Source: Dehalococcoidia bacterium (GTDB taxonomy: Bacteria > Chloroflexota > Dehalococcoidia > Plut-88900). From it: DNA of 64,000 nucleotides. The DNA lies in contig OZ240219.1 of the NCBI GenBank assembly GCA_965197645.1, positions 1,664,001-1,728,000 of the forward strand. The letters run 5' to 3'. Positions 45,001 through 48,000 of this stretch are shown piece by piece; position 1 is the stretch's first letter, and every line of letters begins with the position of its first letter. The position numbers were made by a program.

Positions 45001-48000
45001 ATCCTTCGTCTCGGCGATTGTAGCCGCGGAATCGGTGCGCAACGCGGGCATCGCAGTCCTCGTGGCTATATTGGGCATCTTCGTGTACATCGCCTACGCT
45101 TTTCGCAAGATGCCCCACTTCTTCCGGTATAGCTTCGCCGCAATCATCGCTCTCTTCCACGACGTGATCATCATCCTCGGGCTCTTCTCCATCTTGGGCA
45201 AAGTCATCGACATGGAGATCAGCACCATGTTCATCACCGGGCTGCTGGCGGTGATCGGCTACAGCATCAACGATACCATCGTAGTGCTGGACAGGGTGCG
45301 AGAGAACGTTCAGAACCGGGCGGGCGAGAGCTTCGAGCAGATAGTGAACAACAGTCTCCTGGAGACCATGGGCCGATCTATGAATACCAGTCTCACGACT
45401 GCGTTCATGCAGATATCTCTGCTGGTCATAGGCGGCGCCACGCTAAAGCCCTTCATCCTCGTCCTGTTTATCGGTACAATAGTCGGGACGTATAGCTCTA
45501 TCTTCATCGCTACGCAGCTGCTGGTTATCTGGGATAAGCAGGAGTTCGGGCAGCTGTGGCGCAGAGTGCAGGTCAGACTGGCCGGAGCCAGGGAAAACTA
45601 GGGGGTAGGAAATGAGAGAGAAGCTGATTCCGCTGGAGCAGGTCAGCAAGCTGGTCCGGGACGGAGACCAGGTGCTGATGATGGGCGGCATGGAGTTCAC
45701 GCCCATGGCCGTCCTGAGAGAGATAGTCAGAGCCGGGGTCAAGGACCTCCACACCGTCGGAGTGGTAGGCGGGGCCATGAACCTGGACTTCCTCATCGGG
45801 GCCGGCGTCACAAACACCGTCGAAACCTGCGACCTGAGCCTGCCCCCGTATGCTCGGGTGGCTCCCAACTACCTGCGATACCAGAAGGCCGGCCGGGTCA
45901 AGATGAAGGACAACACCTGAGGGATCATGTACAGCATGGTCCAGGCTGGATCAATGGGAGTCCCCTTCGTGCCCACCCTTGGATACGCGGGCACCGACAT
46001 CCTTGAGCGTAGAGAGGACTTCAAGGTGATTCCACACCCCTTCGCGGAGGGTGAACGGATTGTGGTCGCCGAAGCCATTACCCCGGACGTGGCCCTCTTC
46101 CACGGCCCCAGGGCCGACAGGTTCGGGAATGTCCTGGCCGCGAATACGGGAGAGGCGCTGACACTGGCGCTGGCCTCCCGCAAGGTCATAGTCTCCGTCG
46201 AAGAGATTGTTGACGAGGTATCACCTCACGACCACGCCGGAGAGTACATACCCGCCCTGAACGTTACCGCGGTGGTGCATGCTCCCTTTGGGGCGCACCC
46301 CACCGGATGTCCCGGTTTCTACGAAGAAGACGTGGCCCACGTACAAGAGTACGTGGAGGCCTCGGCCTCCGACGATGCCTTCTCCGGGTACTTGGAGAGA
46401 TACGTCTTCGGCCCCGGGAGCCACGACTCTTATCTTGATAGGGTCGAGTTGAAGACCGAGGAGAAGGTGCCGGGACCGGTAGGTTAGTGTCCACTACCGG
46501 CGCCGACTGCAAACTGGAAGAGTACCTAGCGGTCCTCCTGTCGCGGGAGGTGCGGGACTTCGAGACCTCCGCCTGTGGAGCGCTCTCCTTCATACCGGCG
46601 GCCGGCCTGATCCTCGCCGAGTCTACTCACGCCTCTCACGGGGAGTACATCATCCTCGGCAGCCCGGCTTACCAGCCCTTCGCCTCTCCCAAAGACTTCC
46701 ACTACTTGGCCCAACGCGGGCAGATGGACCTGTTCTTCATCGGGGCAATCGAGATCGATAAGAGGGCGAATTTCAACCTCCACCTGATCGGTGACCCCGA
46801 CGAGCCGGATGTCCGGATGCCCGGCGGATACGGTACGGGCCTGCTTTACTACGCCGTGCCTCGCATCGTGCTGTTCCGTACCAAGCACGACAGGCGGACG
46901 TTCGTGGAAGAGGTCAATTTCGTGTCGGGGGCCGGCACGTCCCCCGAGGGGATAGCCAGGCGAAACCGAGAGGTCAGGGTGATCACACCGATGTCGATTA
47001 TGGAGCTGGACACGGAGACCCGTCTGCTAAAGCTGGTCTCGATACATGCCGGATACACCCTGGACGACGTTCAGGCAAACACTGGATTCGATCTGGGAGT
47101 GGACGGCGAAGCTCCGGTGACGCCTCCACCGACGAACGAGGAACTGACGAGTCTTCGTACCGTAGCGAAGCAGCGGATGATCGAGAGCGATACCTACGCC
47201 GATCTGGCCAGGTCTCTGATCAGAGAGCCCTAGCCCGTCTCAACCAGCTTTCGTCGAACCCGGGGCCGGTGTAGACGTTCTTGAGGGTGCGGACCCTTTC
47301 GATCCGCTCTTCAGCCAGCCGGTCTGCGGCTTGGGCCGTGGTCACTCCGTCCGCCTTGGACTTGGCTATGACGTTGGTCATCGTATCGTACACGTTGGCG
47401 GTCATGTCCATGGCGGCTTCCCGGCTGTAGCCCCCTATCTCGCACGCCACGGTTATGATCCCGCCGGGATTGATGGCGTAGTCCGGGGCGTAGAGAATTC
47501 CCGCATCGTGGAGCTCTTTGGCGTGCTCATCTTCCAGGAGCTGGTTGTTGGCCGCTCCGGCGACGATGGGGGACTTGAGCCGGGGTATTGTGTCGCTGTT
47601 TAGGACTCCGCCCAGAGCGCAGGGGGAGAAGATATCGCACTCTACGTCGTAGATATCATCAGGGCTGACTATAGTGGCGCCCATTTCGGAAGCCATGGCT
47701 ATTCGACCCTCGTTAATATCGGCGGCGATGATGTGAGCGCCTTCCTCTTTCAGGTACTCGGCGAAGCTGTAGGCGACCTTGCCGAATCCCTGTATTGCTA
47801 CCGTCTTACCCTCCAGCGAGTCTGAGCCGAAGACCTCTTTGCAGCAGGCCTGAGAGCCTTTGTAGATTCCATAGCCGGTGATCACCTCTGCGCCACCCAG
47901 ACCGCCCCGGGCCTCGGGCAGGCCCGATGCGTAGGGCGTCTCCTTCCGGACGTTGACCAGGTCGTCCACCACCGTACCCACGTCTTCAGTGGTGAGGTAC

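Follow-up and report, generated by a model that had tools for sequence, protein, structure and literature searches.

The locus examined here raises the question of whether an in-frame UGA, lying inside a gene for a CoA-transferase-like subunit, ends that gene or is read as selenocysteine (Sec) and, if it is read, what a selenocysteine would do in a protein of this fold. We take the gene to encode a genuine selenoprotein, the alpha subunit of a non-canonical CoA-transferase-fold heterodimer in which we infer Sec103 to be catalytic, and we put the probability of this overall reading at about 0.65. The window is the whole stretch of DNA that was analysed, 64 kb in length, and coordinates count along it. 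The gene, its UGA and the gene of the partner subunit are located as follows:

45612..46487, + strand: alpha-subunit gene, 291 codons with Sec at codon 103, GctA/IpdA/AibA-like CoA_trans fold
45918..45920, + strand: in-frame UGA, read here as Sec (U103); column kept in 22 loci, with Cys in homologues
46487..47233, + strand: beta-subunit gene, 248 aa; GTG start overlapping the alpha stop; CoA_trans match at 4.5e-13

The genome-wide survey's note had described one 291-codon gene with an in-frame TGA at codon 103, and the ATG start (45612), the TGA and the TAG stop (46485-46487) are all as described; read with TGA as U, the gene yields 291 residues with a single recoded codon. The note's further claim that the two half-ORFs are halves of one CoA_trans domain was borne out by Pfam PF01144, which matched the N-terminal half alone at 2.7e-5 (profile positions 6-70), the C-terminal half alone at 4.2e-10 (102-216) and the whole alpha protein at 1.2e-18 with 67.8 bits (cut-off 23) over positions 6-216 of 217. 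The best PDB sequence match of alpha was GctA (1poi_A, 2.7e-33). Foldseek with the AF2 model of alpha (pLDDT 92.8) returned 1poi_A at 1.2e-24 with a TM of 0.87, and gave a TM of 0.86 for IpdA and 0.78 for AibA. In this model, helix 103-115 begins with U103 and follows strand 97-100. No NCBIfam model reached its cut-off for alpha, the transferase models scoring 36.1 against 128.5 and 29.6 against 315, and ESM Atlas, queried with a Cys homologue of alpha, gave generic CoA-transferase clusters only. Public databases name the gene fragments 'glutaconate CoA-transferase subunit A'.

TGA occupied one column in 22 loci, spread over 21 Chloroflexota genomes, with identities as low as 30-42%. These loci comprise all 16 TGA-bearing loci among 61 relatives and six more from the phylum sample, and the column conservation reported in the note was thus upheld. 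The G340 locus was left out of the Sec count; its '1 TGA' is a true stop, and its product, encoded within a protocatechuate cluster, is a transferase of the His type. Cys stood at the TGA column in 31 of the best 150 representatives. Among the best 120 homologues (90% clusters), the column was Cys in 41, all full-length, and Glu in two, and the remaining 77 were fragments beginning at query positions 105-115, 2-12 residues past the column, which are split gene calls. Several Cys homologues carry the residue in a nearly identical K-D-N-T-C-G motif; the note's caveat that there is no Cys/Sec pair therefore falls, since these include the closest full-length homologues. Cys or Sec was invariant at the column in 21/21 aligned clade members. 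A tree of 163 homologues placed the Sec forms in at least four groups, interleaved with Cys forms within one clade, and set the Glu-type (IpdA-like) clade apart from this Cys/Sec clade. TGA serves as an ordinary stop in six of the 14 neighbouring genes. Two DNA runs from other studies covered the stretch at 95-99% identity, and none of the 40 differences listed, out of 64, falls within 45889-45988. Two sponge metatranscriptome runs yielded short contig pieces from either side of the UGA and from the beta gene, none of them bridging the UGA; being contigs, these pieces are no proof of expression.

Downstream of the UGA lies an element that resembles a bacterial SECIS:

45937..45953, + strand: SECIS-like hairpin; 7-bp stem, 45937-45943 with 45947-45953; GGC loop at 45944-45946

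The 7-bp hairpin with a GGC loop that the note had reported is therefore present, and it shows covariation. Its stem begins 16 nt past the UGA and its loop lies 24-26 nt past it; the bacterial SECIS consensus places the loop at 16-37 nt, with a G in the apical loop. Pairing was observed at 95% of 140 cells, compared to 14-45% in slid controls, and 0/500 shuffles reached it; two-sided changes occurred in four of the seven pairs (22 cells). Among 11 family-f1 genes, 22 of 135 amino-acid-invariant degenerate columns were codon-identical, and six of these 22 formed the gene's single such run, which covers the hairpin. The isolated hairpin folds as the MFE structure at -7.7 kcal/mol. The 71-nt fold of the region in the source genome (G000) was no better than shuffles (z = 0.29), and its MFE favours another, non-conserved hairpin specific to G000 directly after the UGA; the comparative test was preferred to this fold. 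Furthermore, an Rfam scan of 45850-46050 gave two chance matches and no SECIS family, and the hairpin was weaker or differently shaped in the Sec forms of G120/G108 and G357:C563. One Cys form (G040) still paired at 6/7 of the hairpin positions.

The source genome encodes the machinery for Sec insertion, one gene of which is within the window:

61995..63851, + strand: selB; TIGR00475, 346.8 bits (cut-off 242.25); frame ending with TGA at 63849-63851

It also carries selA (547.7 bits), selD (379.7 bits, itself with an in-frame TGA) and a tRNA-Sec with a tca anticodon. That selB, a trans-acting need for UGA reading, shares the 64-kb window with the alpha gene is happenstance. selB was found in 19/20 of the other TGA-form genomes, the exception (G108) being 79% complete; this co-occurrence says little because 299/401 genomes of the phylum sample, a tally that takes in the unpublished genomes G281, G097, G201 and G228, have selB. 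With the conserved UGA, the Cys homologues, the hairpin covariation and complete Sec machinery, the note's reading of a selenoprotein of the GctA/IpdA/AibA family stands.

The column that holds U103 has a different occupant in each characterised relative. U103 aligned with Gln of GctA (1poi_A), Gly of AibA (5mzw_A), Glu of 6co6_A and 6con_A and Ala of 6coj_A, and also with the Gln of 'PQGT' in E. coli AtoD. The PDB alignments thus agree with the note's placement of Sec103 on the Glu/Ala position of IpdA, and the title of entry 6coj, 'R. jostii RHA1 IpdAB E105A COCHEA-CoA complex', names E105. An attribution of 6co6 and 6coj to M. tuberculosis had to be corrected, as both are Rhodococcus jostii RHA1 IpdAB. 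We take IpdA Glu105 to be the catalytic residue of the IpdAB hydrolase, and the AtoD Gln is presumably Gln99 of SCOT. SCOT Gln99 is among the residues around bound CoA, according to PMC12817287.

The beta profile matched AibB best in the PDB (5e-43), with GctB at 7.1e-34 and IpdB at 7.5e-26. The Glu of AtoA SENG aligned with beta Pro60, and AibB Cys56, which stands in for the catalytic Glu of Gct according to PMC7756340, aligned with beta Leu57. The catalytic Glu was absent from beta in 27/27 Cys/Sec-type pairs, and apart from a single Asp in G357:C563 these 27 betas conserve no Glu or Asp at the catalytic column or close to it. In 56 alpha/beta pairs, an alpha with N, M, S, Q or H went with a beta Glu in 15/16, and beta Glu occurred with alpha Glu in 0/11, with alpha Sec in 0/22 and with alpha Cys in 0/5. 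The loss of the beta Glu and the co-variation between the two subunits are new beyond the note. Because beta lacks the catalytic glutamate, the pair is probably not a canonical CoA-transferase.

IpdAB, the COCHEA-CoA hydrolase of R. jostii RHA1 (6co6/6co9/6coj) and M. tuberculosis (6con), is like the present pair a heterodimer of class I fold (TM 0.85-0.87), with its functional residue on alpha, E105 in IpdA and U103 here, and a beta without the catalytic Glu (PMC5380842). However, it has Glu105 where Sec or Cys is found here, the two belong to separate clades with ~25% identity, and no steroid/HIP catabolic genes were found in the window or the other neighbourhoods examined. AibAB, the 3-methylglutaconyl-CoA decarboxylase of M. 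xanthus (5mzw), is likewise a non-transferase of the same fold, and its AibB is the best match of the beta profile; it too replaces the transferase Glu with an active-site Cys, which acts there as a general acid on the enolate (PMC7756340). In AibAB, however, the Cys (Cys56B) is on beta and alpha has Gly, whereas here beta has Leu57 and alpha has Cys/Sec; AibB Glu72B lacks a conserved counterpart in the present betas, and that stretch holds no conserved Glu. Selenol, having a low pKa, is a poor general acid, and a proton-donor role like that of AibB Cys56 thus fits Sec badly. The class I CoA-transferases (GctAB, 1poi; AtoDA; SCOT; and His/Asn-type enzymes such as that of the G340 protocatechuate cluster) share the fold and the two-subunit layout, but they combine the Glu of a beta (S)E(N/S)G motif with alpha Gln, Asn, His, Met or Ser, as in the 15/16 pairs above, and the Cys/Sec clade has neither. 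The known prokaryotic selenoproteins (119 families in Table 1 of PMC13188914) have the same single UGA, Cys homologues and downstream hairpin in the coding region, but the Sec described here is outside any CxxU/UxxC redox motif. No selenoprotein family of CoA-transferase fold was found in the main texts searched of selenoproteome surveys including PMC13188914, whose supplementary tables could list one. The note's statement that no CoA-transferase appears among the 119 families agrees with a search of the text of PMC13188914, in which none of three 'CoA' matches is a CoA-transferase.

Gene neighbourhoods, likewise a line beyond the note, offer a lead to organosulfur metabolism. In 21/21 Paenibacillaceae loci, all related and to be treated as a single lineage, a gene like that of 3-mercaptopropionate dioxygenase (Mdo) is found no more than about 1.2 kb from the Cys form, and a class III CoA-transferase stands beside this Mdo-like gene in the cluster. 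The 203-aa neighbour of the Cys form matched 3-mercaptopropionate dioxygenase (3uss/4tlf) at 1e-27. The cluster also contains NtaA/DmoA-family FMN monooxygenases and a DinB/MST protein, and a scan of 16 ORFs there detected no desulfinase of the acyl-CoA-dehydrogenase type. In the known pathway, Mdo is followed by Act or SucCD and then by AcdA (PMC6370202). The AcdA-type 3-sulfinopropionyl-CoA desulfinase, which belongs to the acyl-CoA dehydrogenase superfamily, possibly shares with the present enzyme its position in the pathway after Mdo and Act, and only that; its fold is unrelated, and the analogy is one of gene order only. CoA-activating enzymes also adjoin the pair elsewhere, with an AMP-forming acyl-CoA synthetase directly upstream in G227 and an ADP-forming one directly downstream in G158, suggesting that the acyl-CoA is supplied by a separate enzyme. 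The Paenibacillaceae neighbourhood points to organosulfur catabolism, possibly with a desulfinase-like step.

In the class sample, an Mdo-like gene was present in 16/17 genomes with the Cys/Sec form compared to 6/44 without it; in the phylum sample, it was present in 5/12 Cys/Sec-bearing genomes, 7/12 having no match, compared to 28/389 others. For the source genome the link to the pathway is a weak one: the G000 pair is flanked by secDF and a convergent Glu/Leu/Phe/Val dehydrogenase, and the genome's Mdo-like gene, beside a peroxidase and a FIST protein, is ~110 kb from the pair. No conserved neighbours beyond the alpha-beta pair were found in eight Sec-form Chloroflexota neighbourhoods, where ORF picking was crude and many ORFs were without a Pfam match, and no Mdo-like gene adjoining a CoA-transferase or the pair was found in seven Chloroflexota loci. 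In G003, two class III CoA-transferase-like genes at a distance of about 4 kb (28% identity) were regarded as a chance occurrence.

We propose that the hairpin, 16 nt past the UGA, would direct SelB and tRNA-Sec to insert selenocysteine at UGA-103, and that the product would pair with beta in a heterodimer of class I CoA-transferase fold whose alpha column is an invariant Cys/Sec. Sec103 would then work as a catalytic selenolate at the N-terminal end of a helix, its substrate being a CoA thioester supplied by a separate enzyme. To judge from the sequence comparisons, the enzyme is probably IpdAB/AibAB-like, with Sec as its catalytic residue in an uncharacterised selenium-dependent reaction on a CoA thioester. 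As to that reaction, our best guess, and a tentative one that has gene neighbourhood as its sole basis, is C-S cleavage of a desulfinase-like kind on a sulfinyl- or thio-acyl-CoA, after a thiol dioxygenase and a CoA-activating enzyme. With similar reserve, it might be the first selenoenzyme in which Sec takes over the role of the CoA-transferase Glu, moved from beta to alpha, with selenoester or selenosulfide chemistry or C-S cleavage on a CoA thioester, and might represent a new, fold-unrelated class of acyl-CoA desulfinase/C-S lyase.

Breakdown of alicyclic matter is attributed to SAR202 genomes, and the pair could instead be a C-C hydrolase of the IpdAB type, which would open or cleave a beta-keto (alicyclic) acyl-CoA in retro-Claisen fashion, with Sec/Cys as a thiolase-like covalent nucleophile on the keto carbon and not in water activation. 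Retro-Claisen hydrolysis is performed by IpdAB (PMC6678751), and the E105 column, the IpdA-like fold and a beta without Glu, as in IpdB, all agree with this idea. We nevertheless hold it to be unlikely, since no crotonase, thiolase and acyl-CoA dehydrogenase sets stand beside any Cys/Sec locus examined, the Glu-type clade is separate in the tree and the sole conserved neighbourhood points to sulfur chemistry. In nearly all prokaryotic selenoproteins known, Sec is employed in redox or sulfur chemistry (PMC13188914), and the repeated Cys/Sec switches within the clade are typical of nucleophilic or redox residues. Sec103 could thus serve at the CoA-sulfur site, forming a selenosulfide with CoA-SH, a CoA persulfide or a thiol in a CoA-linked thiol/persulfide transferase or reductase; the thiol-metabolism neighbours (Mdo-like dioxygenase, DinB/MST-like protein) and the position of the aligned SCOT residue near bound CoA would suit such an enzyme. 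However, a second conserved Cys was looked for in the alpha and beta alignments and none was found, which argues against classical dithiol redox chemistry by depriving it of a resolving Cys. A Pfam scan found no flavin or NAD(P) domain in either subunit and the neighbourhoods examined hold no conserved adjacent reductase, making a sulfur-transfer or redox enzyme quite unlikely.

That the pair is an ordinary class I CoA-transferase, with Sec/Cys merely replacing the oxyanion-hole Gln and another carboxylate being catalytic, would fit the CoA_trans match of both subunits and the database name of the fragments. It is made highly improbable by the missing Glu/Asp at the catalytic column of the 27 betas (the one Asp aside), by separate CoA-activating enzymes beside the pair in three unrelated settings and by NCBIfam transferase scores far below the cut-offs. 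Finally, TGA might be a true stop in a split gene or pseudogene, the hairpin being a by-product of coding for a V/L-Q-A-G-S/A peptide. All the public gene calls examined do split the alpha gene at the UGA, the hairpin does overlap a conserved peptide motif, and in Cys-form genes (n=6) the same columns also pair, though at 24/42 cells only. We find this scarcely credible, however, because both halves are under purifying selection, the codon varying in 113/135 invariant-residue columns on both sides of the TGA, and because the TGA column is an invariant Cys in full-length homologues. Furthermore, TGA forms that encode L-R-A-A-A hold the hairpin through different codons whereas Cys forms with the same peptide do not, and a break there would cut through one domain where a helix begins.

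Our preferred reading, that of a genuine selenoprotein, would add a widespread family missed by current catalogues and annotation pipelines, and would place Sec in a fold and active site without flavin, metal or CxxU, where the expected chemistry would be on an acyl thioester or a C-S bond and not thiol-disulfide redox. If the tentative C-S assignment is true, marine and sponge-associated Chloroflexota would hold a new desulfinase/C-S lyase class, with Cys versions in soil Paenibacillaceae. The pairing of alpha and beta residues (Gln/Asn/His with Glu; Glu with none; Cys/Sec with none; Gly with Cys) gives a simple prediction, for any GctAB-like pair, of whether it is a real transferase. The Cys form belongs to a conserved operon of cultivable Paenibacillus species, which makes its function testable at the bench.

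The alpha gene encoded 291 residues with a single recoded codon, U103, when its in-frame TGA was translated as selenocysteine (Sec), and it forms with the adjoining beta gene a layout that is also that of GctAB, IpdAB, and AibAB.

Features of the alpha/beta locus and of the Sec machinery in the genome holding the window (G000)
45612-46487, + strand: alpha gene; ATG at 45612, in-frame TGA at 45918-45920, TAG at 46485-46487
45937-45943 and 45947-45953, + strand: arms of a 7-bp SECIS-like hairpin with a GGC loop, from a gap-free alignment of 20 Sec forms
46487-47233, + strand: beta gene; 248 aa, a second CoA_trans gene, starting on the alpha stop codon
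61995-63851, + strand: selB, Sec-specific elongation factor; 346.8 bits (cut-off 242.25), about 16 kb downstream of alpha
G000:C1:941844-942767 (L093, outside the window): selD; TIGR00476, 379.7 bits, one in-frame TGA

Pfam CoA_trans spanned the full alpha protein (1.2e-18, profile 6-216 of 217), and the halves around the TGA matched complementary segments of it (profile 6-70 and 102-216). The best-matching solved relatives were GctA (2.7e-33), AibA (7e-23), and the IpdA structures of R. jostii (5e-17 and 1.8e-16) and M. tuberculosis (3.5e-13). U103 aligned with Gln in GctA, Gly in AibA, Glu or Ala in R. jostii IpdA, and Glu in M. tuberculosis IpdA, and PDB entry 6coj is titled 'IpdAB E105A COCHEA-CoA complex'. 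The genome-wide survey's note had described the gene, its TGA, the two CoA_trans halves, and U103 on the Glu/Ala column of IpdA, and this observation was correct in all its checkable details.

The TGA was held at one column in relatives, as had been claimed. Among 61 relatives, 16 loci including that of G000 carried one in-frame TGA each, at the identical alignment column in 16/16, and a 401-genome phylum sample contributed further loci in G357 (two paralogues), G120, G108, G397, and G319. The total came to 22 loci in 21 genomes, the most divergent being about 30% identical to the window protein. A locus in G340 was rejected and left out of the count, its column being His and its flagged TGA a genuine stop. 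The G357 paralogues (L047 on contig C563 and L090 on C445) fell one in each subclade, with the motifs K-D-T-A-U-G and V-E-H-A-U-I and a beta subunit for each.

The survey's note had also held that the column shows no Cys/Sec pair, which was not borne out, as 41 of the 120 best 90%-identity clusters were full-length homologues with Cys, 2 had Glu, and 77 were fragments. Several of the 41 carried K-D-N-T-C-G where the window protein has K-D-N-T-U-G. The fragments, of 170-206 residues, began at query positions 105-115, as expected from a gene caller restarting past the UGA. Among the best 150 representatives of an exhaustive search, the column held Cys in 31, Glu in 48, Asn in 20, Gly in 11, and His in 10; Cys was present in all five top full-length matches. 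Cys or Sec was invariant in 21/21 aligned clade members. In a tree of 163 homologues, Sec forms were scattered among Cys forms within a single clade, in four or more groups, implying that Cys and Sec have been exchanged repeatedly. Database names of homologues included 'glutaconate CoA-transferase subunit A' and 'CoA-transferase [SAR202 cluster bacterium]', and none in any source bore a selenoprotein label.

The hairpin 3' of the UGA, with its GGC loop, likewise stood up, with covariation in 20 distinct Sec-form sequences aligned ungapped from positions -6 to +44. Pairing held in 95% of 140 stem cells, compared to 14-45% with the 3' arm slid by 1-3 columns, and 0/500 shuffles reached the observed score. 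Two-sided changes occurred in 4/7 pairs (U-A to G-C or C-G, G-U to C-G, C-G to G-C, and A-U to G-C), and Sec forms encoding L-R-A-A-A maintained the stem through other codons. Only 24/42 cells were paired in six Cys-form genes, although one of the six, that of G040 (L034, G040:C19:31880-32662), retained 6/7 pairs and the GGC loop and may be a recent Sec-to-Cys conversion. Weaker variants occurred in G120, G108, and one G357 paralogue, and the hairpin region had no Rfam match. The 71-nt fold of G000 was unremarkable and preferred a hairpin specific to this genome: a competing 9-bp hairpin directly past the UGA (45920-45939). Only G000 can form it, the other genomes of its family, f1, not having kept it, and its 3' arm is shared with the conserved hairpin's 5' arm.

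A TGA within a reading frame might also mark a pseudogene with a dead downstream half or a reassigned codon. In the 11 genes of family f1, codon counts to either side of the UGA indicated purifying selection together with freely occurring synonymous change, so a dead downstream half is ruled out. Among 135 codon columns with an invariant degenerate amino acid, only 22 were codon-identical, and six of these formed the gene's single uninterrupted run, exactly over the hairpin. TGA serves as the stop of 6/14 nearby Pfam-supported genes, and the genetic code is therefore unchanged. G000 encodes selA, selB, selD, and tRNA-Sec (tca anticodon), and probably also makes a Sec-containing SelD, SelD being a known selenoprotein. 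selB was found in 19/20 other TGA-form genomes; as it was also present in 299/401 phylum-sample genomes (a tally including the unpublished G281, G097, G201, and G228), its co-occurrence is a necessary condition only. We conclude that alpha is a real selenoprotein in which UGA-103 is read as Sec, with a probability of about 0.93. No NCBIfam model scored above cut-off for alpha, and no CoA-transferase-fold selenoprotein was described in the literature searched, including the main texts of selenoproteome papers, whose supplementary tables could list one. We rated alpha as a new selenoprotein family, and the pair as a putative catalytic variant new to the GctAB/IpdAB/AibAB group.

The U103 column holds Gln in GctA and E105 in IpdA, and in the clade profile U103 aligned with the P-Q-G-T Gln of E. 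coli AtoD, which corresponds to SCOT Gln99. PMC12817287 lists SCOT Gln99 among conserved residues surrounding bound CoA. In the AlphaFold model of alpha (pLDDT 92.8), for which GctA, IpdA, and AibA were the nearest solved folds (TM 0.78-0.87), U103 opens helix 103-115 directly after strand 97-100. The N-terminus of a helix after a strand is a usual site for a reactive thiolate or selenolate.

No invariant Glu or Cys was found in 14 clade beta subunits, whose profile best matched AibB (5e-43). Beta Leu57 aligned with a position varying among five AibB PDB sequences (Cys/Val/Ala/Asn/Ser), described in PMC7756340 as Cys56B, in place of the conserved catalytic Glu of Gcts. The Glu of S-E-N-G in E. 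coli AtoA fell on beta Pro60; the two alignments are three residues apart, and beta 55-61 contains no acidic residue. Across 54 alpha/beta pairs from extracted loci together with AtoDA and G340, the beta Glu was present in 15/16 pairs with Asn, Met, Ser, Gln, or His at the alpha column, and in 0/11 with Glu (IpdA-like), 0/5 with Cys, and 0/22 with Sec (Leu 14, Ile 5, Thr 2, Asp 1). The beta glutamate was thus cleanly absent whenever the alpha column had a residue that could be catalytic (Glu, Cys, or Sec); this is a pattern and not a statistic, the pairs being mutually related. IpdAB shares this loss with Cys/Sec-type pairs: according to PMC5380842, Gly57-beta replaces Glu54-beta of GCT, and CoA-transfer activity is lacking. 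We conclude that the alpha/beta enzyme is probably not a canonical CoA-transferase and that Sec103 is quite likely its catalytic residue.

The His-type pair of G340 (L089, G340:C16:24000-41000), with a Y-E-S-G glutamate in beta, lies inside a protocatechuate cluster (IclR, CMD/PcaC, two Dioxygenase_C, PcaB-like lyase, alpha/beta hydrolase, PobA-like) at the place expected for PcaIJ, and looks like a genuine CoA-transferase of the 3-oxoadipate type within the GctAB-like branch.

The window's own pair sits after secDF, facing a Glu/Leu/Phe/Val dehydrogenase, and Sec forms in seven other genomes had no recurrent neighbours besides the alpha-beta pair. Directly upstream of the G227 Cys form, on the same strand, is an AMP-forming acyl-CoA synthetase, and directly downstream of that of G158 an ADP-forming one. 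The Paenibacillus cymbidii cluster holds, with the pair, two NtaA/DmoA-family FMN monooxygenases, a family-5 solute-binding-protein ABC transporter, a class III CoA-transferase, a DinB/mycothiol-S-transferase-like protein, and a 203-aa protein matching solved 3-mercaptopropionate dioxygenase (Mdo; 1e-27). The Cys form occurred in 21/136 Paenibacillaceae genomes, in a conserved cluster of about 12 kb (L094, L109-L128); all 20 further loci kept alpha, beta, the dioxygenase-like gene, and the class III CoA-transferase in that order, with beta at most about 1.2 kb from the dioxygenase-like gene, DinB in 19/20, and the transporter and monooxygenases in 18/20. Since three kinds of CoA-activating enzyme adjoin the pair, an enzyme consuming, not making, acyl-CoA fits. 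The known pathway runs from Mdo through Act or SucCD to the desulfinase AcdA (PMC6370202), and a scan of 16 ORFs from the P. cymbidii cluster detected no acyl-CoA-dehydrogenase domain, which makes the pair a candidate for the third step.

An Mdo-like gene of G000, 41% identical to the Paenibacillus one, lies about 110 kb from the pair and has a peroxidase and a FIST protein for neighbours. Mdo-like matches occurred in 16/17 Cys/Sec-bearing versus 6/44 other genomes of the 61-genome class sample (4/5 versus 4/40 by family) and in 5/12 versus 28/389 (including the unpublished G281) of the 401-genome phylum sample, with groups set after seeing the data and relatives non-independent. The co-occurrence is real but partial in Chloroflexota. 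A role of the pair in organosulfur metabolism is thus a tentative proposal, with the odds against it, and a desulfinase-like step, by neighbourhood and pathway analogy, would be somewhat less likely still. Clade alignments contained no second conserved Cys in alpha or beta, and Pfam detected no redox cofactor domain in either; the repeated switching of Cys and Sec favours a nucleophilic or sulfur-handling role over that of a simple proton donor. The Sec-form genome G016 carries three Mdo-like copies within 13 kb of one contig (C6:5963-6328, 13306-13671, and 18403-18768).

Upstream of alpha on the same strand (36040-38109 and 38549-43130) are genes for a PrkA-type kinase, PriA, peptide deformylase, a CCA-adding/poly(A) polymerase-family enzyme, and SecDF. 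As alpha starts 10 nt past the secDF stop, it may be co-transcribed with these housekeeping genes. Contigs from sponge metatranscriptome libraries matched 45666-45821, 46081-46294, and 46695-46898, parts of alpha and beta, at 97-99% identity, and the whole of this stretch was also present in DNA runs of two other studies at 95-99% identity.
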